Shown: in pieces, positions 37,317 to 64,000 of the stretch
Position numbering within the stretch: position 1 is the stretch's first letter
Layout of the letters: the number at the start of each line of letters is the position of its first letter
NCBI GenBank assembly: GCA_963791045.1
Contig: CAWBQK010000006.1
Coordinates: forward strand, 347,656-411,655
From: Candidatus Latescibacterota bacterium
GTDB taxonomy: Bacteria; Krumholzibacteriota; Krumholzibacteriia; WVZY01
Direction: 5' to 3'
Length of the DNA stretch: 64,000 nt
Program-made: the position numbers and the translations under genes
Notes under the pieces: generated by a model
Told to the model about the DNA's origin: nothing
What the model saw: only the letters and a program-made list of their open reading frames with translations
The model's database searches: none

Positions 37317-37332
37317 TCGTCCCGTCAAGCGT

Positions 37333-41737: not shown

Positions 41738-41760
41738 CTCTAATTACGGATGAGCATCAA

Positions 41761-42909: not shown

Positions 42910-42961
42910 CACGCAATCTAGTTGGTCGGTCCGTACACTCCGTCGGCGGGCGTGGCAGGTT

Positions 42962-45058
42962 TTATTCTCCAATTGAAATCTCACGCCATGAAAGAAGTCC
43001 CGGCTGGGAGTCGGGCTCGGGTTTGATTTCAAAACCGAAGGGCACGCTCCTGTCCAGAATCGACGGGTCGTACTGCGCGATACATTGCCCGGTCAAGCGG
43101 ACGCCCTGAGAGAAGATCGACCCTTCATGATAACAAAGCACCGGGAGCGAATAGCCCCGCTCGTTGAAAAAACCGCCGTAATCCTCGCCGAGAACAACCG
43201 ACCCGAAAACCCCGTCGTTGTTGATATCAATATTAAATCGTCCCTTTGACACACGGATCACCGGGCGGTTGGTGATGTCGATTGTCTTTACAAGATCAAA
43301 CATGTCGCCATCGTCATTCAGGTCGATTCGAAGAAGTGTCTCGTCAAAGACATCCGTTTCGGTCCGGCTCAGTTCTTCGTCGAAGATGAAGGGATCGCCT
43401 CGGTGCCCGCCGCGTCCATTGATGCGCACGTCGGTCTCGGCATAGACGAGCCCGCGAATCAATGTGACGGCCTCATCTCCGACATCCCCCGCATAACAGG
43501 CAAATCCCGCGCCCCTCGGCTGGATGTCGATGCTTGCCGCGGCGATAATCGCGGGGAAGTTCGTCATCGCGTGAGCGGTTTCGGGTTCGAGGAACGCCAG
43601 CGTCTGTTTGTCTGTTCCCGAGCGATTGTATTGATGTCGCCAAACGTAGTTGCCGTCGTTGAGGTCCGAGCGGTGGGTGATCATCAGGTGCATTCGTGTC
43701 GGCCCTCCTATCACGAATGACCCTTCCTTGGGAAAATTTTCGATTACCGTGCTGCCGCCCGGGATGGTTACGGTTTTCGAAGGCCACCGGTACGGGTCGC
43801 CTTCAGCGATAACGATTGAGCCGTGGACGACAAGATTGGTTTGGATATTTCCGATGTCGAGTTCGGAATCGTCGATATAGAAGATGCCCGAAATGACGAT
43901 GGCCGGAGTCTCGCCGGCGCCCGCACAGGTGGGACATGAGACGTCGTTGTCGGGACCGATTTGGGAATCGCCGGCGCATCGAAAGCACATGACGCCGACC
44001 TGACGCTGTGAATTGATCCAGCCGAGAAACTTCTCCGCGGACGCGAAGTAGTGGCCGTCTCCGTCCCCCGGGATTGCATAGAAAAAGTGGGGTGTGGGCG
44101 GCGGATACGACGCCAGCCCGGTTACGAGTTCATAGAATGCGCGAAAATCCGGACGCGGGTCGATGATCGGTTCCGGCCTGGAAACGCCGACATCGACCGG
44201 CTGGGTTCCGTCGGCGATGCGGATGTCGGTTTCTGTGTCAACAAGTCCACGCCCGTCGGAGACGACCCCGATGGCCGCGCCGACCAGAGCCGATGTCTTG
44301 CTCACATACATATCGTCGAGATCCCCATCGTGGTTGAGGTCGATTCCCTCGCTCCATTCGCTGAGATCCTCGAAATCCTTGATTTCACCAAACGCCCCGA
44401 CGGTGATTCCATTCGCTCGCACCGAGCCGTGGATAACTGCGGGGCCCGCTGTGTGCGACGTCCCGACGATGATGTTTCCCGCGGTGGTGACTCGTCCGTA
44501 CACGGCGTTTGCCCCGTCGATATCAATCGAGCCGTCATTTTGCGCATTATTGTGGATGTCGCCGACCACCCTCAAACCCGCTCCGTCTGGTTCGCCGATG
44601 GCGATTTCATTTCCCGCCGCGATGACATGATTGTAGGCGGTCATCGGGTCCGACCAGATCGCTTCGACGGTTTTTACGGCTCCGTCGACACGGCTGGTGA
44701 CAACGATCCGGACGAGATTCGGCGGAATGGAGGGATCGTAGATGCCGTCTCCGTCATCCGACGCATCGTACACCGTGACGTCATAGGAGCCGCGGTCGGA
44801 AGCCACCTCGGTGAATCCATCCCGCCAGCCGGGATCTCCAACGAGCGTCCGGACGGATCGGTCCAGCGCCGCCTGCGCGACGTTCAGCGCGTCGCTATCG
44901 ATGTGGCCGGCGGACTGGGGGACGATTTCATCACGGAGTGATGGCTGTTTGCGCGTGACGCTCACACGAATCACAATAATCGCCGCCACGGCTACAAACA
45001 TGATAGCCGCGGTCCAGCGTTTTAGTGTCGCAAACCGATCCTCGCGATACGGATCCAT
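42962..45058 (-). CDS. PilX-like membrane-anchored exported protein with Zn-finger and DxNxDG motifs
   Basis: N-terminal TM, ALNVAQAALD helix, GSYDVTV, VRIVVTSRV (PilX-like); CFRCAGD/CPTCAGAG; DLNHDGD, DLNDDGD, DINNDG; ends SWREI. Confidence 0.6.
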   Translation of the reverse strand: MDPYREDRFATLKRWTAAIMFVAVAAIIVIRVSVTRKQPSLRDEIVPQSAGHIDSDALNVAQAALDRSVRTLVGDPGWRDGFTEVASDRGSYDVTVYDASDDGDGIYDPSIPPNLVRIVVTSRVDGAVKTVEAIWSDPMTAYNHVIAAGNEIAIGEPDGAGLRVVGDIHNNAQNDGSIDIDGANAVYGRVTTAGNIIVGTSHTAGPAVIHGSVRANGITVGAFGEIKDFEDLSEWSEGIDLNHDGDLDDMYVSKTSALVGAAIGVVSDGRGLVDTETDIRIADGTQPVDVGVSRPEPIIDPRPDFRAFYELVTGLASYPPPTPHFFYAIPGDGDGHYFASAEKFLGWINSQRQVGVMCFRCAGDSQIGPDNDVSCPTCAGAGETPAIVISGIFYIDDSELDIGNIQTNLVVHGSIVIAEGDPYRWPSKTVTIPGGSTVIENFPKEGSFVIGGPTRMHLMITHRSDLNDGNYVWRHQYNRSGTDKQTLAFLEPETAHAMTNFPAIIAAASIDIQPRGAGFACYAGDVGDEAVTLIRGLVYAETDVRINGRGGHRGDPFIFDEELSRTETDVFDETLLRIDLNDDGDMFDLVKTIDITNRPVIRVSKGRFNIDINNDGVFGSVVLGEDYGGFFNERGYSLPVLCYHEGSIFSQGVRLTGQCIAQYDPSILDRSVPFGFEIKPEPDSQPGLLSWREISIGE

Positions 45059-45106
45059 TTGGGCGCCGCCTCCGGTGAAGTCGTGCAGTGGTGAGTTTTT
45101 TGTATT

Positions 45107-45586
45107 CTACAGGTTTGGGAGTTCCTGAACCATCCCCGATGGGGAAATCCGGATACTTTTTTGCTTGCCGTTCGGGTCGTTGAGCTCGAGAACCAACGGA
45201 ACGCCGTGATTTTCGACGGTGCCGTCCGCGGCGATTTCGATATAACCGCCGGGGTGCGTGCCGTTGGGCGTAATAGAGACCCCTTTGGGGAAACACCGCC
45301 GCTTGTCGGGTGTGTCCGGTACCCAGCGCCCGGGGGCCTGTTCGCGAAGAATCTTGCAATCGCCGGTCCCGATATCGTAGTGAATCCGGTACCGTGCGTT
45401 GCCGGCGATCGCTTTCTGACGTGTCAGAAAGATCTGGTTGCAGACCAGTTCGGTCGCTTTATCGAGACGCTGTTCTTTGGGAAAACTGAAAAATGATGGA
45501 ATGAACTCGGCGACGACGAGGACAGTAATACTGACAAACACGAAGATTTTGAGATGTCGAACGCCAGATTTGTGTGAGCGGCTCAT
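45107..45586 (-). CDS. FimT/GspH-like minor pilin with degenerate prepilin motif
   Basis: KSG-VRHLKIFVFVSITVLVVAEFIPSF then LTRQKAIA, and IRISPSGMV at the end. Confidence 0.65.
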   Translation of the reverse strand: MSRSHKSGVRHLKIFVFVSITVLVVAEFIPSFFSFPKEQRLDKATELVCNQIFLTRQKAIAGNARYRIHYDIGTGDCKILREQAPGRWVPDTPDKRRCFPKGVSITPNGTHPGGYIEIAADGTVENHGVPLVLELNDPNGKQKSIRISPSGMVQELPNL

Positions 45587-45692
45587 ATGATTTAATCTCG
45601 CGCCGTCTTGGTGATCGGCGTTTTTGTAAAGATCAACCCTCAGCGAGTCCGGGCAAACGTGGTGTCTGCGCGGCCAATTCCCGCTATGGCAA

Positions 45693-45708
45693 AGCAATTT
45701 CCATTCCT
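45693..45708 (-). promoter_or_regulatory. Possible sigma54 promoter
   Basis: Minus strand AGGAATGGAAATTGCT (GG-N10-GC, TTGCT) ~105 nt upstream of the FimT-like start. Confidence 0.4.
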
Positions 45709-46103
45709 CGCGCATAGCTGATGGCCGCCGACGGCCGCTGAGGTTTTTTGTCCGACCGGCACAGGGGCTGGCTTGTAACATATGGTTGTATAATTGGTTG
45801 CGATGCCATGCGCGCGCCTAGATGCCGGCCGGAGCCGCGCGAACGACCTGCGATCCCGTATGAAGAGTGGGTCCGGCGCGGCGAATTTTTGATCGAAGCG
45901 GCCGCCGCGGGCAATTTGCATCCCTTTGCATCGCAAAGACGTCTGCCGTCAGCAGGTTGAAAATCAGCCTCGCCGGTAGCCTCGGGCTCGGCCGATGTGC
46001 GAAGACGGCGTTGACAGACCGCACGCGGCTAATTAGTATCCCCCTTGTATTTTTTCATTCAATGCGGAATGACTGATATCGATGGGGCGAAGGGACATTC
46101 GAT

Positions 46104-48090
46104 ATGGCAGGCAGAGCGCCAAAATCCAAACCGAAGAAAAAGACCGCGGGCAAGAGCACGCGATCTCCGAAATCGACAAAGAAGACGACAGCCAAAAAAT
46201 CAAAGGCGAAGCCCTCGAAGAGGGCCAAGTCTGTGAAGAAGGCGAAGCCTGGGAGGTGAAGAGGGCGAAATCAACGAAGGGTGTGAAGGCCGTGAAGGGA
46301 AGGAAGACAACGAAGAGGGCCGCCTCCACGCGGAAGGCCGGCGGCTCGACCAAGGCGAAGTCAGGCGATGGTATAGAGGGGCTCCCGCTGTTTGATGCCG
46401 AGACCACGGCAGATACAACCACCGCCACGGCGACGTTGCCCGAACCGGAAGCGGCCGTTGCCGTGTTGCCCGAACCGGTGACTGAGACTCCGGCGCCGAG
46501 ACGTTCGAGAAAAACAAAGAACGGTTACCAGGACGCCCATTCGATCGCTCGTCGTCAGCGGGAGATCTCGATCAGCGAGTTTTTTGCAAAGAACCGACAC
46601 CTGCTTGGGTTCGACAGCCTGCCCAAGGCGCTCCTCACCGCCGTCAAAGGAAGCCGTGGACAATTCCCTCGATGCCTGTGAAGAAGCGGGTACTTCTCCC
46701 CGAACCTGCTTGTTGAGATCAAGGAGATTGGCGAGAACCGTTACACTCTTCGTGTCGAGGATTCGGGCCCGGGAATCGTCAAATCGCAGGTCCCGAAGAT
46801 ATTTGGCAAACTGCTGTACGGTTCCAAGTTTCACGTTCTCAAGCAGGCCAGGGGACAGCAGGGCATTGGGATTTCCGCGGCCGTGATGTACTCGCAGCTC
46901 ACGACGGGCAAGCCGGTCAAGGTCACGACCAGAACCGGGTCCGAAGCAGGATGCCAACGTATACGAGCTCCAGATCGACACCAAGACAAACAGCCCGATC
47001 ATTATCAAGCGAAACCAACAGGGACTGGGAGAGCCAGCACGGCACCCGGATCGAGATGGAAATCCTCGCGTCCTACAAAAAGGGTCAGACGATCGGTGGA
47101 CGCATATCTCCACCAGGTCGCGATGGCGAACCCGCACGCCCAGCTGGTGTATCGCCCTCCCCGCGGCGCCGAGATGGTGTACGAACGGCTCGACCGACGA
47201 ACTGCCGCTCGAGGCGAGGGCGATCAAACCACACCCCCATGGCGTTGAACTGGGTGTGCTTCTCGATATGCTCAAGCTGACCAAGGCCCGGAACGTAAAG
47301 GGATTTCTCGAAAGCGGAGTTTTCGCGGATGGGCGCGCGCGGCATCGCTCGATGTTCTCGAGTCGCCGGGGTCCCGCCAACGACGTCGCCGAAGAGAGTG
47401 ACCCGCGACCAGGCGGAGAGCATGATCAGCCGCCTTCGCCAAGGCGAAGATTATGAAACCGCCCACGGACTGCCTGTCTCCGATCGGTGAAGAATCTGCT
47501 GCTCAAAAGCGTCGAGCGCGAGGTGGAGCCGAAATTTCTACACCGCGGTGACACGGCCGCCCGCCGTATACCGGGGCAACCCTTTCCAGATCGAAGTGGC
47601 GCTGGCGTACGGCGGTTCAAAACTTCCCGATGACGAAATCGTCAAGCTGTACAGGTTTGCCAACCGGGCGCCGCTCATTTACCAGCAGTCCGCGTGCGCG
47701 ATTGCCAATTCGGTCGATCGGCACCGCATGGAGGAGATACGGCGTCTCGCAGTCCCGCGGCGCGCTGCCGTCGGGTCCGCTGCTCATCGTCGTTCATATC
47801 GCTTCCGCGTGGGTTCCGTTTACATCGGAGAGCAAGGAGGCGATCGCCCACTACCCGGAGATCATAAAGGAAATCAAGCTGGCGCTGCAGGAGTGCGGCC
47901 GCCGCCTGGCCCGTTACATACGAAGAGGCGCGAAGGAGCGTGAAGAGGCGAAGAAACGTTCGTATATCGAACAGTACATTCCTCATATCGGGATGGCGCT
48001 CAGAGAAATCCTGTTCTTCTGAGCGAACGCGAAGAACAGCGTGTCGTCGAAAAACTCAGAACAACTCTCGAGAAGAGCCGGAAATTCTGA
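46104..48090 (+). CDS. top6B: DNA topoisomerase VI subunit B with Lys-rich N-terminal extension; many frameshifts
   Basis: Read across frames: [107 protein letters not shown]; stop TGA 48088-48090. Confidence 0.93.
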
Positions 48091-48107
48091 TTCGGAGAGG
48101 AATCACC

Positions 48108-49200
48108 TTGGCGGAAAACAAAACCGTAGTTAAAAAAATAAAAACCGAAGCAAAGAGGATCAAGGGAACGATCGTCGACGGCAGAAAGCCGTCGATGAAG
48201 TTTCCCCTGCGCGCGCTGTCAAACGTCCGATACCACGCGAAGAACGGGTATTTCGAAATGCGCGGGCGGAAGAAAGAGCGCACACTCACGGTTAACACCG
48301 TCAAGACCTTTGCCCAGACGCTGCGTATGATGTCGCTTTCAAAAGAACTTCTTGAAACCGACGACATCGCGACAAAGAGGGAAGCGTATTACGTGTCCAA
48401 GAACTGGGAGGCGGCACGTTTCAACGAACAGCCGGAGTCGGATGCGGTGATCGAGGACGTCGAGGCTTTTTTCGGTCTCAACCGTGAACAGCTCGGTTTC
48501 ATCCCGGAGGAAAAGGGTGGTGACGTGGCCGGGCAACTCGTCGTGATCGACGAGGACAGGGATACTCGTAAAAAGCTCAAGATCGACTGCACGAAATTTG
48601 GAAGTGGCGCTTACTCGATTCCGATCGCCGTCGAACAGCTCGAATTCGATACGAAGGCAAAATTTATTCTCGTGATCGAGACTGCGGGAATGTTTCAGCG
48701 TCTCGTCAAACACAACTACTGGAGAACAGCGAACTGTATTCTTGTTTCGATGGGAGGTGTTCCGACGCGGGCGTGCCGGCGTTTTATCCGGCGCATAGCG
48801 GACGCCAAGAACATCCCCGTCTATGTCTTTGTGGATGGCGACCCTTACGGAATAAGCAATATTTACAGGACGCTGAAGGTCGGGAGCGGAAACGCCGCCC
48901 ATCTGAACGAGTTTTTCTGCGTCCCCCAGGCCCGTTTTCTCGGGATCACGCCACAGGATATCATTGACCTACAAGCTTCCCACGCACCCACTGAAGGAAG
49001 TTGACGTAAAAAGAGCCAAGGATGCATTGAAGAACGATCCGTTCATTCTTCATCACAAACCGTGGCAGAGGGCGTTGCAGCAGATGGTCAAGATGGGTGT
49101 GAGGGCGGAACAGCAGGCGCTGGCAAAGCATGGGCTCAACTACGTGATCGAGACCTATTTGCCCGAGAAACTCAGTAAGCCGGAGCAATTTCTCCCATAG
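48108..49200 (+). CDS. top6A: DNA topoisomerase VI subunit A (Spo11-like); one frameshift near 48968
   Basis: GAGG RBS + TTG 48108; TKREAYY catalytic Tyr motif, NEQPESD, VIETAGMF and DGDPYG TOPRIM, KVGS, AEQQAL, YLPEKL. Confidence 0.95.
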
Positions 49201-49934: not shown

Positions 49935-50393
49935 CTATTCACCGACGATCATGTGCGGTAGCAGGATCACACTTTGGCCGTGCCCCTTCATGGTGTATCC
50001 GCCACCAGGCAGTTTGGTAATGCTAATCTCGCCGGGACTCGCCGGGTCCGCGTTCCAGGGTACCGCGGTAACGGCGCGTGTGAACGGATTGTCGGGATAC
50101 ACACCCTTCGGGAGAAGGGCGCGAACTTCGGCGTCGTCGGCCGGCTGCGGATAGACGCCGCCGTGGTCAACCGAGAACAATTCGACGCCGGACTGGATGA
50201 CGTGCATGTTGTTTCGGACCGCGGTTTCCTTCGAACGGCGAACGAGACGCATGAAGTTCGGGATCGAGATTGCGGCCAGGATTCCGATGATCAACACGAC
50301 GATCATGAGTTCGATCAACGTAAATCCTCGTGAAACACGCCGTCGAGGCGCGTGCAGTCGCGTTTCCATTTCGATGTTATTGTTTTTGCGCAT
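49935..50393 (-). CDS. Type IV pilin / pseudopilin (start may be 50369)
   Basis: RG-FTLIELMIVVLIIGILAAISIPNF prepilin cleavage/methylation motif; GVYP, NPFT. Confidence 0.92.
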   Translation of the reverse strand: MRKNNNIEMETRLHAPRRRVSRGFTLIELMIVVLIIGILAAISIPNFMRLVRRSKETAVRNNMHVIQSGVELFSVDHGGVYPQPADDAEVRALLPKGVYPDNPFTRAVTAVPWNADPASPGEISITKLPGGGYTMKGHGQSVILLPHMIVGE

Positions 50394-50659: not shown

Positions 50660-50688
50660 TTGACGTTCACGAAACCCTTCATTATAGT
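50660..50688 (+). promoter_or_regulatory. sigma70-type promoter of the Lon-like protease gene
   Basis: TTGACG-17 nt-TATAGT, 34 nt upstream of the ATG, with GGAGG RBS. Confidence 0.6.
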
Positions 50689-50722
50689 GGATGGTAATTC
50701 AATTCACACCAGGGGAGGATTC

Positions 50723-53146
50723 ATGACCAGAATATCTCGATTCAGAATAAAACCCAACGAATTACGGTGGACGTGCAACCCGAACTCACTGGGCTTCAGG
50801 ACAACTGATGAAATCCCATGCTGCCAGGATATTATCGGGCAGGAACGGGCGCTGGACGCCATCCGGCTCGGGCTGGAAATCGAAAGCCCCGGGTACAACA
50901 TTTTCGTTTCCGGCCTGACGGGAACGGGCAAAACAACAACGCTCAAATCTCTTCTGCAGAGTATGCAGCATGGGAAGAATAAACTTCAGGACATCTGCTA
51001 CGTACATAATTTCCGTGCGTCGGACATGCCGGTTTGCGTCAAGCTCCCGGCGGGCGAGGGTGGGAAATTCAAGAGATATGTTGCCGACATGCTCCGAACT
51101 CTCAAAAAGCACATTCCCCGGGTCATCGAGGGGGAGGCCTATGGAAAACGCCAGAAGCAAATCCTCGAGGAACTCCAGGGAAAGCGATCGGCGCTCGCCA
51201 AGGAACTCGAAAAGAAAATAGCTGATAGAAATTTCCGTTTGCTCGAGGTTCAATATGGCCCGTATACGAGACCGGTCGTATTGCCCGTTATCGGCGATGA
51301 GCCGGTGGAAATGGACAAGCTCGCCGCGCTGCTCGAGGAGAAGGCGATCACTGAGGCGGACGTCGAGCGCATTAAAAAGGACCATGATTTTCTCGGCGGT
51401 GAAATGGAAGCGTTCATGAAGATCGCGCGAGATCTCGACCGTCAGTTGGCGGACAAGATTTCGTGGCTGGAAAAAGAAAATGTCAGTCCGATCATCAACA
51501 CGTGCGTTGAAGAACTCAAGGAGCGGTTCGAGATGGGCAAGGTCCATCACTATCTCGATGAGCTTCGTGAGTACTGTATCGACAACATCGATGTATTCAA
51601 GGAAACGGTGGGAGAACAGAAGGAGCGTGATGAGCCGGCCGAGAGTTTTGTCGAGTTCGAGGTCAATCTCCTCGTCGATAACTCGCGGGCGAAGGAAGCT
51701 CCCGTGATTATTGAGACCTCTCCTGCTTACGGAAATCTGTTTGGCTCGATCGATCGTGTCCATGAAGGCCGTGGTGAGTACCGTTCAGACCAAACGATGA
51801 TCAGGGCGGGATCGCTGGTACGCGCTAACGGGGGCTATCTGGTGTTGAGTCTCACCGATGTCATCGAGGAACCGGCGGTGTGGCCGGCGCTCAAACGGGC
51901 CCTCAAAAACCAGAAGGTGGCGATCCAGAGCTTTGATTCGGTGCTGTTCCTCTCCTCTTCAGGAATCAAGCCCGAGCCGATCGAGATTGACGTAAAGGTC
52001 GCACTGGTCGGAGACGCGTATTCCTACAATATCCTCTACAACTATGACGAGGATTTCAAAAAGATATTCAAGGTGAAAGCAGAATTTGACACTGAGATGC
52101 CGAATGAAGGCGAGAACCTCGGGAAGTACTCGTTGTTTGTCAAAAGTATCATCGACAAAGAGGAAATGCGTGCGTTTCACAAGACGGCCGTTGCCGCGAT
52201 TGCCGAGGAAGGCTCGAGAATCGCGGGACGCCAGGATAAACTCACGACGAAGTTCAGCGATGTTGCCGATATCGTCAGGGAGGCGAACTATTGGGCGGGG
52301 AAGGATAACGCACGCATCGTAAAAGCCAAACATGTGGCGAAGGCGATTGACGAGAGGGTCAAACGCGTCAACCTCGTCGAGGAAAAAATCAGCGAGATGC
52401 TCAACGATGGGACGATCCTTATCGATATCGACGGCGCAAAGATCGGACAGGTGAACGGGCTCTCCGTGTATGACGTGGGCGATTACTCGTTCGGCAAACC
52501 GAGCCGGATCACGGTTGAGACGGCGATGGGCCGGGCCGGTCTGATAAATATCGAACGCGAGGCGGACCTGAGCGGCAAGACACACAACAAGGGTGTGTTG
52601 ATTATCGAAGGGTTCTTCCGCAGGAAATTCGCGCAAGAGAGACCGCTCACGATGAGTTCGAGCATATGTTTTGAACAGTCCTACTCGGGTATCGATGGAG
52701 ACAGCGCTTCGTCGACCGAGATCTACGGGCTCCTCTCTAGTCTTGGGGAAATTCCCCTCCGTCAGGACATCGCCGTCACCGGCTCGGTCAACCAGAAGGG
52801 GGAGATCCAGCCCATCGGCGGCGTGAACGACAAGATCGAAGGTTTCTTCGACATTTGCAAGCACAAGGGCCTGACCGGGTCCCAGGGCGTGATGATCCCG
52901 AAGCTCAACGAGAACGACCTCATGCTGAAAAACGAGGTCATCCAGGCGGTTAAAAGCCGCAAGTTCCACATCTATTCGATTGAAACGATCGATGAGGGAA
53001 TCGAAGTGCTTGCCGGTATGAAATCGGGGAAGAGACTCGAAAACGGCGAGTTCGAAAAGAAATCGGTCAACTACCTTGTCGACAAGAAGCTCACGAAGTT
53101 TGCCGAGCACATCCGCGAATTCGAAGCAGGTGATGAAAAGGAATAA
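50723..53146 (+). CDS. Lon-like (LonC/AAA_32) S16 protease
   Basis: IIGQERA, GLTGTGKT, RANGGYL, GQVNGLSV, FEQSYSGIDGDSAS (Ser), PIGGVNDKIEGF (Lys). Confidence 0.93.
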   Translation: MTRISRFRIKPNELRWTCNPNSLGFRTTDEIPCCQDIIGQERALDAIRLGLEIESPGYNIFVSGLTGTGKTTTLKSLLQSMQHGKNKLQDICYVHNFRASDMPVCVKLPAGEGGKFKRYVADMLRTLKKHIPRVIEGEAYGKRQKQILEELQGKRSALAKELEKKIADRNFRLLEVQYGPYTRPVVLPVIGDEPVEMDKLAALLEEKAITEADVERIKKDHDFLGGEMEAFMKIARDLDRQLADKISWLEKENVSPIINTCVEELKERFEMGKVHHYLDELREYCIDNIDVFKETVGEQKERDEPAESFVEFEVNLLVDNSRAKEAPVIIETSPAYGNLFGSIDRVHEGRGEYRSDQTMIRAGSLVRANGGYLVLSLTDVIEEPAVWPALKRALKNQKVAIQSFDSVLFLSSSGIKPEPIEIDVKVALVGDAYSYNILYNYDEDFKKIFKVKAEFDTEMPNEGENLGKYSLFVKSIIDKEEMRAFHKTAVAAIAEEGSRIAGRQDKLTTKFSDVADIVREANYWAGKDNARIVKAKHVAKAIDERVKRVNLVEEKISEMLNDGTILIDIDGAKIGQVNGLSVYDVGDYSFGKPSRITVETAMGRAGLINIEREADLSGKTHNKGVLIIEGFFRRKFAQERPLTMSSSICFEQSYSGIDGDSASSTEIYGLLSSLGEIPLRQDIAVTGSVNQKGEIQPIGGVNDKIEGFFDICKHKGLTGSQGVMIPKLNENDLMLKNEVIQAVKSRKFHIYSIETIDEGIEVLAGMKSGKRLENGEFEKKSVNYLVDKKLTKFAEHIREFEAGDEKE

Positions 53147-54141
53147 AGACGCCGCATCAGGTGACGGAATCGAGTACTCGCCGGAAGAGCTCATCAAAAA
53201 CACGGCCCGCGAGCTGGGGTTCTCGCTTGCGGGAATCACCGGTGTATCGCCCAGCCCGCAATCAGACCTTGTTTTCGACAGATGGATCCGGGAGGGAAAG
53301 CACGGGGAGATGCGTTATCTGTCCGGGGGGGCGGACAAGCGTCATGATCCGGGACTGCTGCTCGACGGCGCAAAAAGTATCATCTGCGTCGCCGTGAACC
53401 ATTATTCCGAGACAAAAGAGAAACGGAACAGCGCGGCCGCGCGCGAAGGGCGTGGCCGCGTGGCCGTTTATGCACAGGGCCGCGACTATCACGAGGTCAT
53501 GACGGATATGTTGTGGGAACTCGAAGTCCGAATGATGGATTTCTTTCCGGATCTGAAAGCGAAAGCGGTCGTTGATACGCAGCCGATATCCGAGCGCGAT
53601 CTCGCCATCAAGTCGGGAATCGCCTGGCTGGGCAAGAACACCTGTGTGATTTCTCCCGAATATGGTTCGTGGATCTTTCTCGGTGCGCTACTTACAAACC
53701 TGACGCTTGAGCCCGATCAGCCCCTCAAAAGTCTTTGTGGGAAGTGTACGAATTGTATTGCTGCGTGCCCCACGGACGCGTTGTCCGAGTTTTCCCTCGA
53801 TTCCAACAAATGTATCTCATACCTCACGATCGAAAAGAGGGGAGGAAATCCCGGCGGAGCTCCACCGTTCTATCGGCCATCACCTTTTTGGATGCGATGA
53901 ATGCCAGCGGGTGTGTCCATTCAACAAGGCTGCGAAGGAGTCCCTGGTGTTTGACGCACGGGACTTCAATCCGATTGTGGATATGACGATTGAAGACCTC
54001 GTCGATATTTCCGACGAGGCCTTCAAAGAGTCTGCGCGTCTTACCGCGATCCGGCGGTGTAAGGCGGAGGGACTAAGACGAAACGCTCGAATCGTGCTCG
54101 GAAACCGAATGGCAGAACCGGATGAACCCCTGGAGCCTTAG
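53133..54141 (+). CDS. queG: Epoxyqueuosine reductase; frameshift near 53843
   Basis: YAQGRDYH, WLGKN, GSWIFLG, CGKCTNCIAACPT, CISYLTIE, then in the other frame FGCDECQRVCPFN. Confidence 0.94.
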
Positions 54142-54203: not shown

Positions 54204-55319
54204 TTAAGATTTGACGGCGACTTTCAAATCACTCAAGTCATTCAGGATGCGGAAATGCATCTTGATGTTGAGAATCTCAAAGATATCGTTGATGAGCTTG
54301 GGAATGTTCATCAACGCGAGATCCCCTCCGTCTTCCCGAAGCGTGGCCACGGTGCCGAGCAAAAGGCCAACGCCCGAACTACTTATGAAGTCCGTCTCGG
54401 AAAGATCTATGACGAGGGTCTTGTGGCCCGAACCGCGCACCTGGCTGATGGCCGCGTCGAATTTCGGAACCGTCGTGGAGTTGATGCTCCCCGTGGGTTT
54501 GACTATCACCGTCTCGTCAGAGTTGGTGGGGACTATATCGATTGAAAGCGTGTTCATTTCTGCCCTCCTGGTCAGATCGTAGCCATGTCCATCTTTTCTT
54601 TCGATCTTGAAACGTGTGGAATTCTCGTTACGGACCCGCTTGTAATCCAATTCCGTTGCTATTTCCTGGAGAAGAAAGAGGCCGAGACCTCTTTTGCTGC
54701 GCTGTCTGATTTTGTCGCCGACATTGATGCTTTTCTTAACCGCTGTTGAAAACGGCGCGGCGTTGTCGGTGTAGGTTACATCAATATCGGTGTCGCCGAA
54801 CGAGAGCGACACGGACACAACTGGTCTTTTCCCTTGAAATTCGCCGTGTTCGAGTGAATTTGCCGCCAATTCGTACAAACACAATCGAAGATAGGATAAC
54901 GACGCCTCGTCAAGCGGGACGGACGCTCCGAGAAGAAGCACCGCGGTTGTCAGTTGTTCGAGGGTGTTATTCGGTTCGGTGCAGCAAATCCGGTACTCGA
55001 TGTGTTTTCCGGAATCGTTCGGTGGCTTTACACATTCGAATTCACATGCCGCGCAGTAGGTGGTCGATCCGGGCGGCGTCACCGCGGTCTCCACTCGCGC
55101 TTCGTCGGTTTGAACGGTGCTCTGGATTTGCTGGAGCATGACGAACGCCATGACCGGCATGTGCGTTGGATAGAACAGATCTATGTTCGAGTACCCGAGA
55201 TTTGAACAGTAGTTCATGTACTTCTGGAGGTGGTCAAAATGGGCGGTAGTGACCGACCTGTCGATTTCCAGCGAAATCGAGCGATCCACAAAATCTATGG
55301 ATTGGACGATCAAGTACAT
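54204..55319 (-). CDS. Fused anti-sigma kinase (RsbW-like HATPase) and anti-anti-sigma STAS (RsbV-like) protein
   Basis: LCLYELAANSLEHG, YTDNAAPF, RGLGLFLL, then IDLSETDFISSSGVGLL; AGGA RBS before 55319. Confidence 0.88.
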   Translation of the reverse strand: MYLIVQSIDFVDRSISLEIDRSVTTAHFDHLQKYMNYCSNLGYSNIDLFYPTHMPVMAFVMLQQIQSTVQTDEARVETAVTPPGSTTYCAACEFECVKPPNDSGKHIEYRICCTEPNNTLEQLTTAVLLLGASVPLDEASLSYLRLCLYELAANSLEHGEFQGKRPVVSVSLSFGDTDIDVTYTDNAAPFSTAVKKSINVGDKIRQRSKRGLGLFLLQEIATELDYKRVRNENSTRFKIERKDGHGYDLTRRAEMNTLSIDIVPTNSDETVIVKPTGSINSTTVPKFDAAISQVRGSGHKTLVIDLSETDFISSSGVGLLLGTVATLREDGGDLALMNIPKLINDIFEILNIKMHFRILNDLSDLKVAVKS

Positions 55320-55322
55320 TTC

Positions 55323-56882
55323 CTATGTCCTCTGTCCCGGCTCGCGCGCGCCGACGGCCATGACATTCTCGGTCAGACTCAGCCCAAGCAGCGCGATGTC
55401 ATCGGCCTGGGACGCGCCGTGCCGGAATCGTCGCTCTGATTTCACAAGGTTGGGAATGAGCTGTTTTGCGCCCGAACCCGCGTACGCTTTGCAAACCGCC
55501 AGGATCCTTTCGAAGCCGAACTGACTGTCCTGTTCGTTCATCGATTCGTTGAGACCGTCGGTGTATTGAAGCACAAGCATTCCCGGTCGAAACTTCAGCC
55601 GATACTCCGCGATGTGATCGTCGAACATGTTGGGGGGAAGTATCCCCATCGGGGGACCTTCCATTTTGTGGAACTCGCAGCGCCCCGTCGACTTGTCAAA
55701 ACACGCAAGCGGGTTGTGGCCCGCATTGGAATAGACCATCTCGCCGGTCCGCGAGTTCAGGTTGGCGATGAAAAAGGTCACAAACATGTTTGGCTTGAGC
55801 GTCTTTTTGATCGACACGTTGAGTTCTTTGATTAGGCTGGCGGGTGAAAGCCCTCTGGCCGTGAGCGTGTGGACCATGATCTTGAGCATGCCCATGACAA
55901 CGAGTCCCGGGACGCCCTTGCCGGACACGTCGGCCATCACGAGCGATATGTTTTCATCATCGATGGGGATGACATCGAGGTAATCGCCGCCGACCTCGGT
56001 TGCGGATTCGTAGTGTATCGCTACTTCGAATCCTTCCGGTTCCGGCACAGTCGCCGGTATCAACGTGGCTTGAATTTCGCGTGCGATTTCAATCTCTTTT
56101 TCCATTCTCTCTTTGATGACGATTTCTTTTTGGGCTTTTGCTATTCGCTCCGCCATCTCATTGAACGATTCGGCAAGAACGCGGAATTCGTTCTTGGTCT
56201 TCAGATAAATTTTTGTCTCGAGATTGCCCTCTCCGAGTTTGTTGACGCCCTCCATCAGGTGTTTCATCGGTTGAGAAATTCGTCTGAAGAGAATGAGCGA
56301 CAAAATCGCTCCAACACCCAGCGCGAACAAGATTCCAATAATCGAAATCGTCAGCGCCCGGCGAATTGACGCATTCATCTCCTTCTTCGAATATGTCAGG
56401 TGGACATTTCCGACCACCCGGTCCAGGCTTTTTACCGGCGTGTCGATATGGTAGGAACTCACGCTCTCGTAGAGGGTTTCATCCGTTCCGACGAATGGAG
56501 ACTGCTTGATCGTGTATCCCTCATAGTCTACCGCGTAGCGTTTCGAGACATGCTGCAGTTGTTCGTGTCCATAAATGATTCCGTCGGCGTCGGTTATGAT
56601 GACCGATTCCACGCTTTGACTGTTTTCAAGGATCGTCTTGACCATGGGGAAAAGCTCAAACTCGGGGTCGGAGCGGAGGAGAGCTTTTTCGCTGCTCAGT
56701 GCAATGTTACGCCCCTGGAGAACCAGCCCTTTTTCAATCTCGTCGGTCAGAATTCGCTTCTCATGGATGATGAGAAAATAGGAGATCGAAAGCACGGTCA
56801 GCCCGAGCAGCGCGATGGCGCCCACGCAAAGCTGTGTCCGCAGCGAATGGAAAGGATTTATTTTGAATCTCTTACTTTGCAC
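55323..56882 (-). CDS. Membrane sensor PP2C/SpoIIE phosphatase with HAMP (RsbU-like)
   Basis: TM-periplasmic domain-TM-HAMP; EVGGDYLD, ADVSGKG, NAGH, YTDGLNE, DDIALL. Confidence 0.93.
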   Translation of the reverse strand: MQSKRFKINPFHSLRTQLCVGAIALLGLTVLSISYFLIIHEKRILTDEIEKGLVLQGRNIALSSEKALLRSDPEFELFPMVKTILENSQSVESVIITDADGIIYGHEQLQHVSKRYAVDYEGYTIKQSPFVGTDETLYESVSSYHIDTPVKSLDRVVGNVHLTYSKKEMNASIRRALTISIIGILFALGVGAILSLILFRRISQPMKHLMEGVNKLGEGNLETKIYLKTKNEFRVLAESFNEMAERIAKAQKEIVIKERMEKEIEIAREIQATLIPATVPEPEGFEVAIHYESATEVGGDYLDVIPIDDENISLVMADVSGKGVPGLVVMGMLKIMVHTLTARGLSPASLIKELNVSIKKTLKPNMFVTFFIANLNSRTGEMVYSNAGHNPLACFDKSTGRCEFHKMEGPPMGILPPNMFDDHIAEYRLKFRPGMLVLQYTDGLNESMNEQDSQFGFERILAVCKAYAGSGAKQLIPNLVKSERRFRHGASQADDIALLGLSLTENVMAVGAREPGQRT

Positions 56883-58883
56883 GGTACACGCCGCTCAGTT
56901 TTTGAAGTTCTTCGTGGGCCTTGCTCAAATATCGTTTCGCCTTGTTGTTCTCGGGATCTACGGCCAGCGCCTTCTGCCAGATATCGATCGCCTCGGTATA
57001 ATTGTGGTCTGAATAGAGCCGCATGCCGACGAAGAGATATGCTTTTGTCAAAAGCTGCGACACATTGTGGTAGTTTGGATCCATGGCCCATACCTTGGTA
57101 AACGAACTAATGGCGCCGTCAAAATCGCCTTCGTCAAAAGCGGTCATTCCGTTGCGGTATTGAACGTCGAGCAGTTTGGCGTCAACGTTCGGCGCGGTCA
57201 CGGTGGGTGAAGTCATTTCATCGACGGGTGTTGTCTGGAGCGCCGCGAGGGCCGCCTCGGCCCTGCGGTTCTTATATGTCGTGATGTCATTGAGAAGCCC
57301 AGGGTCATTGGGCTTGAACTGAAGGGCTGTCTCGATCGACGCGATGGCGGCGTCAAAATCTCCTCTGGCGGCGGCCGCCTCAGTCTGCGTCCCGAGGCGT
57401 TTGATCTGTTCGTCGATGCTTAGACGGCACTTGTCCCTGTACTCGGCGGCGAGCGCGTTGTTGGGGGCAATTCGCAGCGCCTCTTCAAACCCCATCAACG
57501 CCGCGGTAAAATTCCTGTCCGCGTAGTGGTCGATGCTCGTTTTGAGAAGCTGTGACATGAGCGAATGCGAATTCTGTGCGGCGACGATTTCTCCGTTGCA
57601 TCGTTTGACCGACGCGATGGCGGCGGGATCATCCGGCTTGACGGACAACGCCTGGTTGGCGTGGAATAACCCCTGAACGAAATCGCCCTGATTGACAGAA
57701 TCATCCGCCTTTGACATTGCGCTTTCATATCTGGACTGAGTTTTTGAATTCAATCGCGTGTTCGTTGTCGGGATTCCACAAGAGAGCCAATTCATACTGT
57801 TCGGCGGCTTTATCGAATTCGCCGACCGGCATACAATCGATCGCCCTGGCTGATCGCAGTGTAAATCTGCGACTGCTCCATCTCTGCCATTCGATTTGTC
57901 AGCTTGGTATTGACCTCGTCTTCGAGACGCCGGCGGGCTTCCATCTGCCGGTCGGCCCGGGACGCTCCGAATTTGATGGTGAGAGAGAATCGGTGGTTGT
58001 TGCCCAGATCCTCGTCGCGGTAAGCGTAATCGAGAGCAAACTGTTTGAAACGCGCACCAAAACCAAATGTCGCCGTGGCGTCGTCGAGCCCCGCGCGAAG
58101 CGCGAGGAATCCGTTGTACATCACTTCCTGTCCGATCCTGACATTGAACGGTGAGTAACGTGGATTGACAAGATCGAGAGACGTAACGAGAAGGAAGTCG
58201 CCACCCCCTGATATCGCGGAAACGCCAGCCGCCACGTTGAAGGGATCCGATACCTTGTCGTTGTCGAGCTTGACCGACGGCTCGATGAGATTCTGGATAG
58301 CAAATCCCTCGCGAAAGCCTTTTATGAACGAGTTACCGGAGAGAGTCTGGGTAGCCATCAGGCCGACGTCGAAGCCGAAGCCCGATCCGCTGTATTCACC
58401 GAACGACTGATTGTCCAGCTTGAGGTTCAAGCCGGCGGTCAGCGAAGAGGTGATATTTCTTGCATACCCGAGAAGAATACGTGTTTGCGCGTTGCTCAAG
58501 TCGGATGACAAGAGGCGATTGGTATAGTCCCGCTCTTCGATTCCACCGATATCCAGGCGTATAAGACTGATTCCGAGTGTGCCGTAGTTAAGAAGCGGAT
58601 GTACGTAACTTGCGGCATGATAGACCGATTTGGAATCGAATAGAGTGGTTCTGTAGAATAAAAATTGTTTCCACTGGAGCTGGCCGAGCCCGGCCGGGTT
58701 GTAGGCCTGCACCGACGCGTCATATGCATGGCTGACACCGGCAGCGCCCATGGCATTGGATCGCGCGCCGGTTCCGAGCACGAATGGGAGCTCGGTGCCG
58801 TACGACTGGGCTCGCGTGTCCGCTGCGCCGCCGACGACGGCGGAACCCAGGACGATTATTAATGCCAACAGACGCAGTTTCAT
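56872..58883 (-). CDS. PorV/PorQ-like outer-membrane barrel fused to TPR repeats; two frameshifts (~57825, ~57737)
   Basis: Signal peptide; GTGARSNAMG, YNPAGL, GFGFDVG, LALRAG, FALDYAY...NNHRFSL; then coiled coil and TPRs. The bridging frame reads GEFDKAAEQYELALLWNPDNEHA, itself a TPR. Confidence 0.85.
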
Positions 58884-61800
58884 TACCGGACAACCCCAAC
58901 TTTGCGTTTGATCGATGTGTCGGAACCGTTTTCGCCATGAACCTCGAGGACGAGATAGTAGACTCCGTTGTTTACAACGTCGCCGTCGCCGTTGCGTCCG
59001 TCCCAGGCCAGATCCTGATGGAGACCCGGGTCTCTGGTCTTGTTGTCGAGAAGAGTCGCGACTGGTTTTCCCCAAATGGTGTACAGCTTTAACGTTACGG
59101 TCGATTTTTGTTCGAGATAATAGGTTATCGTGGTTTTCTCCCTTCCCGCGGCAAACGGGTTGGGATAGTTCGTGTAGGCGGAATTGACGTCGTTTGCCAG
59201 GACGGTCGTCCATTCGCTCGCGAGCGGGAACGACTGCCCGTCTGACGCTGTGATGTTTGCCGGCGTATGCACGGCATAGTCGGACACTTCAATGGACGCG
59301 GCGTTGTCGACGACGAACCGGAACGTACGGTTCGAGAGACTGGCCTCAAAATCCAAAAGGACGCTCAGTGTATCGCTCGAAGCCGCGGGAACAATCGCGG
59401 TGCTCGAAGAGAGATTGAATACGATCTCGTCCGATTCAAACTGTCCGGAGACCGTCACGCTGTCGCTGGTGACAAGAAGGGCGCGGGCGGCAATCGACGA
59501 AGGATCGACAGAGGCGCCTTTCGAGTCTTCAACTCTCACGTGCAGGGCGTTGAGTTCGATCGCCGAGTAACCGCTGGGATCTCGGTTGTCGAGCGTAAGT
59601 TTGAATGCCTCCACGCCTGGTTCTCTGGCGCTGATGTTGGCCGGAATTTTTGACAACAACCCGGCGTCGGCATTTTCGCTGGGCAGCTGAAGCGTGACCG
59701 GGCCCGCCACAAAGGGGAACTGTCCGGAGATTCCAAATATCCGGTTGCCGTCGTTGAGGTCACGAACCATGATATCGGTTTGTTCGAGTCTTACTTCGAT
59801 TTCTGCGGGAGAGAAAAGAGCCTTGACGTCCACAATAACATTGAGTGCAGCCGACGACCCCGGCGACACGGTTACCGGCGAAACAAAACCACATTCGGCG
59901 GAAGGGGCCGTGTTGCTGGGAGCCGTGCAAACCGATACGGTATCGGCGCCGTGCAGGACATAAATCGACGAGAATGCGTTCCCCGGGAAAACGGGTCCGC
60001 CATTGGAGTCAACGAATTGCAGTGTCAACGAATCAACCTGAATCGACGATGCCGAACCCGAGCCATCGTGGTCGATCACCAGTTCCATGACCGGGACCGA
60101 GCTGAGACCCGGCGACACCGTGTTGGGCAGAAGGTCGGTGTACGTGGCGGTTACATCGTTCGCCGGTAGTTGGAATACGACTCTGTCCGAACGAATGGGG
60201 AAGTCATTTCCGGCCGGGTCGGCGGCCGCGACGGATACGACCGAGACGGTATTGATGTCCCGTGCGACAACCGCGCCCTTGTCATCGAGAGCCATGTGGA
60301 AGCCGGGTACCTGAGGGAGATTCTTGACGTTCACATATATATCGATGGTTTGAAGCACGTTCGGCGACAACACCAGGGGTGTGGTCAAATTTGCGGCGAA
60401 CAAGTTGCCCGAGCTGCCCGTCGGCTCGCCGTCGAAAAGCGTCGTGGACCCGACATCGATTCTCAGGGTGTTGATAACGATCGATGGATGAACCGCGGTC
60501 CCAGTCGTATCGTAGAAACTGAAACGCAAGTCGGTAAGAATCTCCCTTGCCGTCGAGGGGGTGGCGGGGTTCACAAGGCCAATCGAGAAAATGTGCAGGT
60601 TTTCCTGCCCCGTATTTGCCGTTAAGGAATTTCCATTGCTCGAAGAGACCAACAGACTTTCCGCGGCGGTATTTACCGTGACTGGCGTCGTCAACCAAGG
60701 AAAAGTGTCGCCGCTGTTGACCGGCGCCGGTTTGCCGTCATTCGCGTCCGTCAGCATTATTCCAACCGGATTCTGGATGCCGGCACGGAACGCCGCAAGC
60801 ACCGCGGAATCGGCGATGTTTCCGTTCAAATCGAGTATTACGGCTGATCCCGGATCAATGACCAGCGGCGCCGCGGGCCTTAGCGTGAGTGAACTCTCCG
60901 TCGAGTCGTTGACATTGAATGTGAAGTCGTTGCCCGATGGTTCGGAGATTGTAATTCCCTTGAACACATCATTCGCGGCAACAGGTGCGCCCGATCCTTC
61001 GTCTATGGCGATTTCGAGTCCGTCAAAATGTAACGGCGCGAAAAGCGAATCCGCGGAACTGTAATCGATGGCCAGGGAAAACAATTCGACATTTTGTTGC
61101 GATCTGTTCACCGACGCTGGGGCGCGGTTGAACAACGCGACAGAGACTCCCGCTGCGCGACTCTGTATGTTTATGGTCTCCGAGCATGTTGTTGCCGACA
61201 CATCGGAACTGTCGGTGGAATATGCGAATCCGCAAAACTCGATTTCCCCCACGGTGTCGGTTGATAAGGTCCAGACGATTGTCGTGTCCGCGCCTGGGAG
61301 GATGTCGGCAGGTGCGGGTGTTGGGCCTGACAGAATCGTTGCCGCCCCGTCCCCTGAAATCATGATGGGCGAAGGGCGAACTCCATACAGGGTATCCACC
61401 CCTTCATTTCGCGTGATCATGGAGAGTTCGATGATTTGGCCGGTGCTGTATGACGATCTATCACACACAAAGCTTGTTATGAGCGGATCGGTGGAGATCG
61501 TCTGATACGTTGAATTGACGATCGCGTCGTCAATCGGTCCATCATTGGAAGATTGAACTTCGATTCCGTTTATCGGAAGTCGAGCCTGGAAGGTCGCCCC
61601 GTCGTTCGGGGTCGCTACGACGGAAAACGTAATATGGACCCGCAGGCCGGAGGTGGGGATCGGTTCGTTGACGGAGAATGTGTTCCGCCACGAACTGCCC
61701 GCCCAACTAAGATACGCCAGCGGAGCTTCGAGACCCCGGTCGAATTTGGCCGGGTGACCGCCGGCTTCCTTCCATAGTCTTAATTCTGAGATGTCCGCGC

Positions 61801-63660
61801 CGGTGATGGCCGATCCGATGCTCTCGATATTGATATGTTCGAGTTTGTCGGACCATATTCCGTTCGCCGGAATGACGAAGCTCATAGCGAGCACGTCCTG
61901 GTTGTTCGGCGACGCATTATACGACGGCACGTGCCCTATTGAAATCTGGTCGGTTATCATTCCGTCAACGGTATCGGCGCCCGGCGAATTGATCGGGAAA
62001 TCCCCCTCGATCTCGGTGCCCGGCGGCAATACGGCGAGATCTGCGGGATCGAACAGTCTCAGATCGAATGTGGACGAATCAGTGACTGCGAGCGGAAGAT
62101 CGTAGGAGACAAAAATGTATGATATTTCGGCCGGGTTGAGCGATTGACCGAGGTGCTCGAACACAAACGACGCGCCGGTCGAACCGAGTGCGGCGAGACG
62201 TGTGTCGATACTCGGATCAAAGAGGCCGTTGCTGTCGACATCCGCATAGGCGTAGACACTGTCGATCTCGGCGCTGGACATTGTGCCCACCTGATAGAGT
62301 TTCAACTGATCGAGGTCAACCGGGTACGAGTATCCGTTGAAGAAACCGACGCCGAAATTAAGGTTATTTTTTGACCCGGGGGCGTGTACCTGATTCCCGA
62401 TGGGGTACGGGAATGCCGTCAACTGGTCCGGCTTGGGGATCATTATGATCGAGCTCTCGACAACGCTGCCGTCGATCGGTCCGTCGTTTGTGGATCTCAC
62501 GCCGACACCCATTGCCGGAATTGACATTTGTATTGTTCCCGCGACGAGATAGTCAGGGGCGATGTCGACTCCGAGATAAAAATGTTTTCGATCGCCGCAC
62601 GCATCGTCCAGCGGGGAGTCTAGCCCGGTTGTAATAAAAGAACGTCCGCCGGGCTCGGCCGGGTTTTCCGCCATGTCTCCGAGGTATATGTCGTCACCGG
62701 TTCCAGAGTCGAATACGCCATTGCCGCCGTCGGCATACAGTGCGAGCCGCGTGAAATGCTCGGATGAAGCCGTGCCTACATTTCGGATTATCAGCGTCTC
62801 CAGCGTGTCGACCGAATACCCGTTCGCGGGAATTCCGACATCGAGAACGAGAATGTCCGTTCCGCCTGTTACGATAAGACTGTCGATACTTGGGTAGACG
62901 GCCAGTTGGTACTTTCTCATTCCGTCGATTACGAGTTCGGCGGGTGTGGTGACGGGGAACGTGCCGATCATTGGATAGACAGGGTTGATGCCGATGTCGG
63001 ACGCAGCAAAAAGCGCAACCGAGATCGTGTCACCGTCGGCGGAGCAAAACGAGTCGATATCCGCAGTAACCAGGAGCCGTCTGACTTCACCCATCGGTAC
63101 CGTGAGGTTCAGCGATCGTGCGATCAGTGAACCAGTCGAAAAAGAAAGGTCACTGGCAAGGATCGCATCCCCCGCGTCGACGATCCCGTTGCCGTTCTCT
63201 TGATAGATCCTGACTTTTGAAAACGTGTTGTCGAAATCGTTTTGAGATCCGGCGCCGCGGGTCGTGTTTGTCAGGACAAGCGAGTCGAGCGTCGCGGGAC
63301 TCAGCGTGTTGTTGTAGATTTCAAAATAGAGAAGCGTCGCGTCCGTGTCTCCGCGCCCCGGAGCATATGAAGTTATCGGCAAGCTGGTAAGCTCGATGAC
63401 TTCGGAATTCTTGAACGCAAACGTTTTCGACGACACCACGGGTGAATCGATAGGTCCATCGTTGGACGAGATTACCTCGATGCCGTCGACCGGTATTCCC
63501 GGTTTGAAATGGTTGCCGTTTGCGGCGCTGGGGTTGATGTCCGCGACAATAAACACGTGAACTGCAGGGTCGATCGGCTCGTTCAGCCCGGAAATTTCAT
63601 AACGATCGCCGGAGTAAACCATCTCGCCAAGGTTGATATCCGTGGCTGGTTCGAATGTTC
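58883..63660 (-). CDS. Giant repeat-containing secreted/surface protein with C-terminal FlgD-Ig/T9SS-CTD-like domain (5' end missing)
   Basis: About 1590 codons, beta-rich, repeated NDGPID and DxxNGxFD motifs; ends NYPNPF...WDGRNGDG...NGVYYL...RKVGVVR; stop overlaps next ATG (TAATG). Confidence 0.88.
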
Positions 63661-63664
63661 CGCG

Positions 63665-64000
63665 GTGCAGGTCGGAGACCTGATCGACGTTGTTGCGGCG
63701 GGCGCGTTCGATGTTCGTCCCGCTGATGGTGTTGCACTTCGGCAACATCCGTGAGGGCGGCATCGGCTTCGGCGGGAAGGAACTTTCCGCGCCCCAGGCC
63801 GGCCTCATGGCCATGCTGACCAAGGGCATCGTGGCCGGCGAGATGGCCTGGCCCCTGGTGATCTCGGGCATGTTCATGGGCCTGGCCCTGATCCTGATCG
63901 GCGCGCCCAGCCCCATGCTCATCGCCGTGGGCATGTACCTGCCCTTCAACGTCACGTTCACGATCTTCGTGGGGGGGGTGGTGCGCTGGACGCTGGATAC
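63665..64000 (+). CDS. Internal fragment of an OPT-family oligopeptide transporter (no 5' part; one frameshift near 63710)
   Basis: VQVGDLIDVVAAGA / MFVPLMVLHFGN...ELSAPQAGLMAMLTKGIVAGEMAWPLV...SPMLIAVGMYLPFNVTFTIFVGGVVRW. Confidence 0.85.

Follow-up and report, generated by a model that had tools for sequence, protein, structure and literature searches.

The window analysed here is a 64,000-nucleotide stretch of a Candidatus Latescibacterota bacterium genome, forming the end of contig C6, and its minus strand carries at 54204-63662 a set of genes encoding, in order, a giant secreted protein, a PorV-family outer-membrane barrel, a stretch of tetratricopeptide repeats (TPR), a membrane-bound phosphatase and a protein that joins kinase and STAS domains. 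The giant protein ends in a C-terminal domain (CTD) like those belonging to a type IX secretion system (T9SS). What is conserved in this module is the giant protein, the barrel-TPR protein and an sCache-HAMP sensor; to this unit at least two different outputs are attached, one of them the partner switch. The module is real and widespread, and apparently represents an undescribed architecture within a known kind of trans-envelope signalling. As for its function, we consider it somewhat probable that the module, built on a T9SS cargo-carrier pair, signals from outside to inside through a contact between the TPR arm and the sensor.

Conservation was assessed in a phylum sample of 208 genomes, all in the class of the window genome. 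In a first set of seventeen loci, picked by the barrel, the barrel-TPR gene is followed by the sensor and the giant gene stands in front wherever the sequence reached it (in locus L051 it is adjacent but inverted). To avoid choosing by the barrel, a further search was performed with the sensor periplasmic domain alone, and this subfamily was found in 99 of the 208 genomes. Ninety-eight new sensor loci were fetched and annotated with profiles derived from seed loci; 10 were dropped because they lay near a contig end with less than 2.7 kb upstream. Of the 88 that remained, 81 have CTD, barrel and TPR immediately before the sensor; the seven exceptions are four solo sensors, two sensors with a TPR remnant and one extra copy. 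Two subfamily sensors (L135:4894-6285 and L093:2371-4059) have no recognised cytoplasmic output domain. The proposal of an earlier note on this DNA, that the minus-strand genes probably form one operon, is borne out with two corrections, given below: the order is kept across the phylum beyond chance, and it is the input part of the four-gene order that is conserved in relatives. The junctions given there (TAATG at 58883, an 11-nt overlap at 56872-56882 and a 3-nt gap at 55320-55322) are all present in the sequence. Paralogous operons within one genome each keep their own giant gene; at L109:2-19998, an HD-GYP-type and a PP2C-type operon stand in tandem, each with its own giant and barrel. A search with the TPR tail matched 94 of the 208 genomes, most rows by construction; seven matches were new, five being divergent TPR tails followed by sCache-HAMP-PP2C and two lying at contig ends. 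Note that L240-L244 form one family, in which a divergent barrel-TPR gene is followed by sCache-HAMP-PP2C and then by a kinase-like gene, with no CTD giant detected upstream.

The cytoplasmic output is exchangeable. Among 115 sensors, 74 carry PP2C and 35 carry HD-GYP; 4 were cut and 2 were unassigned. Pfam HD_5 was found in 33 of the 35 non-PP2C sensors tested, an HHExxDGxGYP-type motif in 35/35 HD sensors, and HDxGK was shown in 31/35 (the pattern caught an earlier site in the other four). The metal-binding motifs of PP2C are intact in 70-71 of 71 sensors. PP2C loci carry the kinase and STAS domains fused in different ways, and kinase/STAS genes are absent from all 22 HD-GYP loci with downstream room. 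Four output changes are placed on the barrel tree of 92 rows; strong branches force no fewer than 2 of them, and all 27 HD rows fall in one family. The sensor tree has 2 output changes. Since HD-GYP can take the place of PP2C/RsbW/RsbV, a replacement that the earlier note did not see, what stays constant is the input that spans the envelope rather than the partner switch.

Within the window genome, a CTD protein stands directly before 8 of the 12 PorV-like loci (on contigs C1, C6, C7, C9, C10 and C18), which suggests, at the level of gene neighbourhoods, that type-A-like cargo is generally paired with a cognate PorV paralogue. Only 2 of the 12, both TPR-tailed, precede a HAMP-PP2C sensor; the six other CTD-barrel pairs have neither tail nor sensor. 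The genome has six further PP2C loci, and no barrel adjoins any of them. The second tailed system (C10, ~30260-47055; L001:2261-19056) comprises a giant invasin/Big_1 CTD protein, a PorV-TPR protein, a kinase-sCache-HAMP-PP2C fusion (frameshifted), a triple-STAS protein and a ParA-like ATPase gene. The C10 type is a separate subfamily, in which the TPR barrel is followed by the kinase domain in 12/12 tailed loci and the CTD gene stands in front in all 11 with upstream sequence. A profile scan of genome contigs turned up a single true relative, while another 79 loci matched for the most part through HAMP; no barrel or CTD match was found in those 79 loci, a weak control, as many of the organisms are without PorV. 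In the phylum of a Latescibacterota-labelled genome (151 genomes), the sensor profile gave 2 weak matches and the barrel-TPR profile matched in 18 genomes with its barrel part only, no TPR tail being found there. Likewise, in the class of a Melioribacteraceae-labelled genome, the barrel part was matched in 3/151 genomes with no TPR tail.

In the window, the 3' part of the giant protein (58883..63662, minus strand; ~1,590 residues, beta-sandwich domains) is preserved and the 5' end is lost. Complete orthologous open frames measure 1,895-3,505 residues in 58/64, with variable N-terminal domains (DUF11, DUF7483, CBM96), and several full-length orthologues start with a signal-peptide-like sequence judged by eye, a part that the window copy lacks along with its 5' end. 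This is one of the two points on which the description in the earlier note needs correction. Positions 63690-63998 (plus strand), in the last ~340 bases of the window, code for an OPT oligopeptide-transporter fragment at 66% GC, and a contig of a related strain departs from the window at 63662, the edge of this fragment. With both observations, the contig end is read as chimeric and the giant gene as cut there; the high-GC foreign stretch (63663..64000, plus strand) lies outside the system. The start at 63961 of a 1,692-residue open reading frame (ORF), within the foreign stretch, was rejected as the real gene start. The T9SS type-A-like CTD occupies the last ~102 residues (58883..59191, minus strand). 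Its hidden Markov model (HMM) scores, 23.6 bits for FlgD_ig and 21-22.7 bits for TIGR04183 (cut-off 23), are both just below cut-off, and TIGR04183 matches 28 of 76 giant orthologues at E 0.01; the C-terminus of the PorU model was matched by all 76. The last 430 residues were modelled as two beta-sandwich domains and the CTD (predicted local distance difference test score (pLDDT) 96.1). The CTD model has the CTD fold: it matches the PorU CTD 6za2_B with Z 11.6 and a root mean square deviation of 2.4 over 93 aligned residues, and also the CTDs of PorZ, NucA and mirolase (Z 8.9-10). With a profile built from the orthologues of the window CTD, 100 ORFs of the genome were matched; the window CTD scores 163 bits and the other 99 matches score 115 and 75 or less, so that it is a distinct subtype among the CTDs of this genome. 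Other structural matches of the tail are Ig-like adhesins, cohesins and a sialidase N-terminal domain, and on account of these modelled likenesses an adhesion role is likely. No internal repeats were found in the giant protein by self-BLAST.

The next gene encodes a signal peptide and a 14-stranded outer-membrane barrel of the PorV/PorQ family (57828..58883, minus strand; identified with NF033709, an orthologue model and Foldseek). The barrel passed NF033709 with 110.5 bits (cut-off 90) and scored 43.5 on the canonical PorV equivalog NF033710, below its cut-off of 250. The porU-linked, tail-less PorV lies on contig C7, and the window barrel is a distinct paralogue. In the model of an intact orthologue (pLDDT 83.6), the barrel leads into a long helix, behind which come proximal TPRs, then a linker of low confidence and finally a pair of distal TPRs. 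The top Foldseek matches of the barrel model are the PorV chains 8gl6_F and 6h3i_F of the T9SS translocon (template modelling score 0.64-0.66 by target length); FadL ranks behind PorV, and a FadL transporter identity was therefore rejected in favour of the PorV type foreseen in the earlier note. The arm (56872..57741, minus strand), ~330 residues in its fused form, comprises a proximal TPR/helical part, a variable low-confidence linker and a distal TPR pair conserved at about 56875-57186; conservation within the arm is highest in the distal TPRs, in both output classes. Neither a peptidoglycan-binding domain on the arm nor a PorP/SprF or OmpA match was found in the Pfam scan of the window proteins and the intact orthologue. 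The idea of one barrel-TPR protein holds for the family (fused in 95 of 99 related loci), and in this assembly the two parts appear as separate ORFs. The intact orthologue aligns without loss over three successive frames (58871-57828, 57820-57755 and 57741-56875), the short third-frame stretch (57755..57820, minus strand) lying between two apparent single-base errors. The base at 57826 is absent in the contig of a related strain (one contig, depth 2.6), and among further genes of this genome that were compared, 3 out of 16 are frameshifted too (hand count, with three antisense shadows and one ambiguous match left out). For these reasons, together with the fused loci, the two indels splitting barrel and TPR are probably assembly errors; alternatively, the gene may have been really and recently inactivated. 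A separate cytoplasmic TPR protein was rejected, because relatives have the TPR within the barrel protein and the alignment here runs on through the frames. Since the arm belongs to the same protein as the barrel, behind a signal peptide, it is placed, on this topology, in the periplasm.

The inner-membrane sensor phosphatase (55323..56882, minus strand) has transmembrane segments TM1 (residues 21-39) and TM2 (residues 181-199) flanking a DcuS-like sCache domain (56352-56768), followed by HAMP and PP2C/SpoIIE. Pfam and NCBIfam models gave sCache_3_2-HAMP-SpoIIE, with intact PP2C catalytic motifs. In the motif P-E-x-x-L, the residues P35, E36 and L39 are invariant in 93/93 rows of both output classes; the invariant residues of the sensor sit in the N-terminal helical motif of the sCache domain. 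The membrane PP2C SiaA is a weak match to the window sensor. The last gene (54204..55319, minus strand) encodes an N-terminal domain of ~115 residues, an RsbW-like GHKL kinase and an RsbV-like STAS domain with a phospho-acceptor serine motif (HATPase_c_2-STAS by Pfam). By pattern, the STAS serine motif is present in 26/26 and the kinase N-box in 21/26, the G1-box glycine being atypical in this clade. PP2C motifs, GHKL kinase and STAS phospho-serine are together the parts of a partner switch. For the conserved N-terminal domain (window 54950-55319), there was no Pfam or Atlas match, and profile alignment did not find it STAS-like (probability 0.2). The domain calls of the earlier note (CTD, PorV/PorQ, TPR, HAMP-PP2C, HATPase_c_2-STAS) were thus recovered by HMM, that of the CTD being borderline. 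Its suggestion of sigma-factor control was not: the operon in the window has no sigma gene, TIGR02980 (SigB/F/G) was over cut-off in 0/5 genomes, and on these gene contents such control is unsupported; the kinase/STAS protein may act on a target other than a SigB/F/G-type sigma factor.

A contact of the TPR tail with the periplasmic domain of the phosphatase, also proposed in the earlier note, was addressed by complex prediction and by covariation. The TPR arm with two sensor domains scored 0.36 (runs 0.36, 0.34, 0.37) and the best of 3 controls 0.01; at least 44% of the contacts agree between runs, and partner pLDDT is at least 76. The mark for a complex was reached by 116/157 solved and 2/215 mismatched pairs; at a score of 0.60 or under, only 18 solved pairs and both mismatches reach it. 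The prediction therefore stands above its controls and the modelled contact is weakly supported. In a mirror-tree comparison the five parts are all correlated with one another at 0.83-0.93, which is what co-inheritance would give. The partial correlations of the sensor are 0.22 with the distal TPR, 0.04 with the proximal TPR, 0.36 with the barrel and 0.20 with the CTD. With mutual information corrected for the average product (92 operons, effective number 45, too few), the sensor-TPR, sensor-CTD and CTD-barrel signals were not above the local-permutation null.

Close homologues carry the labels Candidatus Krumholzibacteria or Latescibacterota, and the host most likely belongs to Krumholzibacteriota, which agrees with the class shared by all 208 sampled genomes. 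The host has T9SS components. SprA and PorU were over cut-off in 5/5 genomes, and in the window genome SprA and porU-porV lie at C15:124945-129516 and C7:199678-204856. GldL, GldM and GldN were not found by TIGR models in 4 to 7 genomes of the phylum each (81-97% complete); the Bacteroidota control was positive, and divergent homologues are possible. By gene content, this genome thus possibly has a T9SS without the known motor. GGDEF domains occur in 5/5 genomes; the LapG-type protease (PF06035) occurs in 0/5, with a positive control.

In the mechanism that we favour, SprA would export the giant protein, whose CTD would then keep it, uncleaved, on a PorV-family barrel of its own, a binding that the biology of PorV and PorP/SprF suggests for the folds and pairing seen here. 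The TPR arm would hang from the barrel into the periplasm, where the distal TPR pair would bind the LLxxxPExxLxP patch of the sCache dimer; these contact surfaces are proposed from conservation. The state of the giant protein would change, most likely on barrel loading or through a pull on attachment to a surface or cell, and the altered engagement of arm and sensor would make HAMP switch the enzyme. The PP2C output would set STAS serine phosphorylation against the RsbW-like kinase fused to STAS, and the HD-GYP output of one family would be a phosphodiesterase lowering cyclic di-GMP (c-di-GMP), activities that the domains and motifs predict. The final target would probably be attachment or lifestyle control rather than a SigB-type sigma factor.

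Several points weigh against this reading. Kin loci are not independent, and operons pass on as whole units. The solo sensors L074, L111, L116 and L135 have ample upstream sequence and no barrel or TPR, L081 and L143 have a sensor with a TPR remnant only, and L093 is an extra sensor copy behind an operon. The divergent barrel-TPR-PP2C loci L240-L243 have no CTD giant upstream. The trees do not reject that the HD-GYP type arose just once (approximately unbiased test, p 0.089). The DcuS-like fold belongs to a family of small-molecule sensors. The complex score of 0.36 lies in the range where the tool errs more often than not unless the guess is already likely, and it came with no interface. Finally, we know of no route by which a signal would cross the membrane through a plugged PorV-type barrel.

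Four other explanations were considered. The module could work from inside to outside, with the cytoplasmic domain reading the state of the cell and HAMP and sCache gripping or releasing the arm, and so governing how the giant adhesin is displayed, where it sits or whether it is released. Both the linkage of the genes and the weakly passed complex prediction would suit signalling either way, and the model for such control is at hand in LapA/LapD/LapG and Desulfovibrio DvhA/DvhD/DvhG, in which a giant adhesin operon includes an inner-membrane regulator with a periplasmic domain; DvhD, an HD-GYP c-di-GMP switch in an adhesin operon, has a periplasmic Cache domain, as have the HD-type sensors here (PMC13090378). 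However, the adhesins of those systems are substrates of the type I secretion system and are released by a bacterial transglutaminase-like cysteine protease, whereas secretion here is of T9SS type and no such protease was found in the five genomes; LapD is catalytically inactive (PMC13090378), whereas the PP2C and HD-GYP motifs are intact. The commoner output, PP2C with its own kinase and STAS substrate, moreover reads as a signal generator, and we regard control from the inside as unlikely. The sensor could instead bind the CTD of the giant protein while this is periplasmic, with the arm as a cargo chaperone or receiver rather than a signal carrier. There is a precedent in PorA-PorXY-SigP, where T9SS cargo feeds an inner-membrane sensor: the PorA CTD activates PorXY by binding the histidine kinase PorY in the periplasm (PMC12152298). 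Dedicated tailed barrels, PP2C and HD-GYP do not figure in that system. The window CTD is a conserved distinct subtype, and with GldL, GldM and GldN not found, a periplasmic arm could aid export. Such feedback on secretion is nevertheless rather improbable, considering that six other CTD-barrel pairs of the genome do without tail and sensor, that barrel-TPR and sensor persist in the four divergent loci where the CTD giant is missing, and that the TPR-sensor prediction passed, if weakly.

About equally improbable is the view that the genes are merely co-regulated neighbours with no relay between them, the sCache domain being a small-molecule sensor in the operon of the adhesin that it regulates and the arm a structural anchor. 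DcuS is indeed the best solved sequence match of the sensor domain (E 3e-9), and the few solo sensors point the same way, but tail and sensor occur together, the invariant residues lie in the N-terminal helical motif, and the position that we take to match the DcuS pocket histidine is H in only 68/93 rows. For the anchor, there is a likeness in Porphyromonas gingivalis, where PG1035, PorP and PorE form a contact chain of surface CTD protein, barrel and periplasmic TPR part used for anchoring (PMC9143113). PorE, however, is a separate lipoprotein ending on peptidoglycan, whereas the TPRs here are fused to the barrel, bear no peptidoglycan-binding domain found by us and are linked to a signalling enzyme; a PorP/SprF barrel and an OmpA domain, which with a type B CTD define the PorP-PorE arrangement, gave no Pfam match in the window proteins or the intact orthologue, and the CTD is type-A-like. 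Lastly, the contact of arm and sensor might gauge the envelope, reporting the distance between outer and inner membranes or barrel assembly, with the giant protein as a regulated output or passenger. The loci L240-L243 are of the form expected for this, and the sensor is weakly similar to YfiN and to YfiR-associated kinases; RcsF-IgaA and YfiB-YfiR-YfiN are comparable systems. The giant gene directly upstream in 81/88 loci, its adjacency even when inverted and its retention in each paralogous operon make this explanation very improbable.

Known T9SS cargo shuttles include PorV with type A CTDs, and PorP/SprF with cognate type B CTD adhesins (PMC12618676). The module resembles the shuttle pairs in the PorV and CTD folds and in that the gene of the CTD cargo lies directly upstream of the gene for the barrel paired with it; it differs from them in the dedicated PorV paralogue for a type-A-like CTD, the fused TPR arm, the linked inner-membrane enzyme and a host outside Bacteroidota in which GldL/M/N were not found. 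With the RsbU/RsbV/RsbW switches it shares PP2C, GHKL kinase and STAS with its phospho-site. In Pseudomonas SiaABCD, the membrane PP2C SiaA feeds c-di-GMP. Unlike in both, the kinase is here fused to STAS or PP2C, the window operon has no cognate sigma factor or cyclase, and the switch is coupled to a barrel. In YfiB-YfiR-YfiN and TonB-dependent signalling, an outer-membrane component controls an inner-membrane HAMP enzyme or regulator via periplasmic contact; here there is no soluble relay protein or TonB receptor, and the input comes from a T9SS cargo carried by a PorV barrel. In a full-text literature search (most subscription papers and supplements being outside it), neither a PorV-family barrel with TPRs joined to a HAMP phosphatase or HD-GYP nor a T9SS report for this phylum was found; the earlier note, which knew of no description of the combination, is in line with this. 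That the module is an undescribed class of cell-surface signalling, with a T9SS cargo adhesin as receptor or mechanical antenna, the PorV-TPR protein as transducer and the sCache-HAMP enzyme with exchangeable output as receiver, in a host with SprA and PorU and without recognisable GldL/M/N, is a tentative view to which we give a little under an even chance.

As to the surroundings, a Lon-family protease gene and a frameshifted queG (window 50660-54141) run convergently to the operon. In three relatives, too, queG is a neighbour of the operon and marks the same chromosomal position. The window also contains the genes for DNA topoisomerase VI subunits B (in several frames) and A of this bacterium (46082-49004), a gene for a pilin or pseudopilin (49935-50393) and, judged by eye, another pilin-like ORF (45107-45781).

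It is still an open question how giant adhesins let bacteria sense contact with a surface. The module links four proteins in a small, defined chain and has STAS phosphorylation and c-di-GMP as its two natural read-outs; with candidate contact residues that are invariant, and with roughly a hundred variants found in nature, it makes the question testable in vitro. It also points to a cognate pairing of type-A CTD and PorV, and to a T9SS without a recognisable motor, in an uncultured phylum. If the proposed mechanism is true, the PorV-family barrels would be extended from shuttles and anchors to signal transducers.

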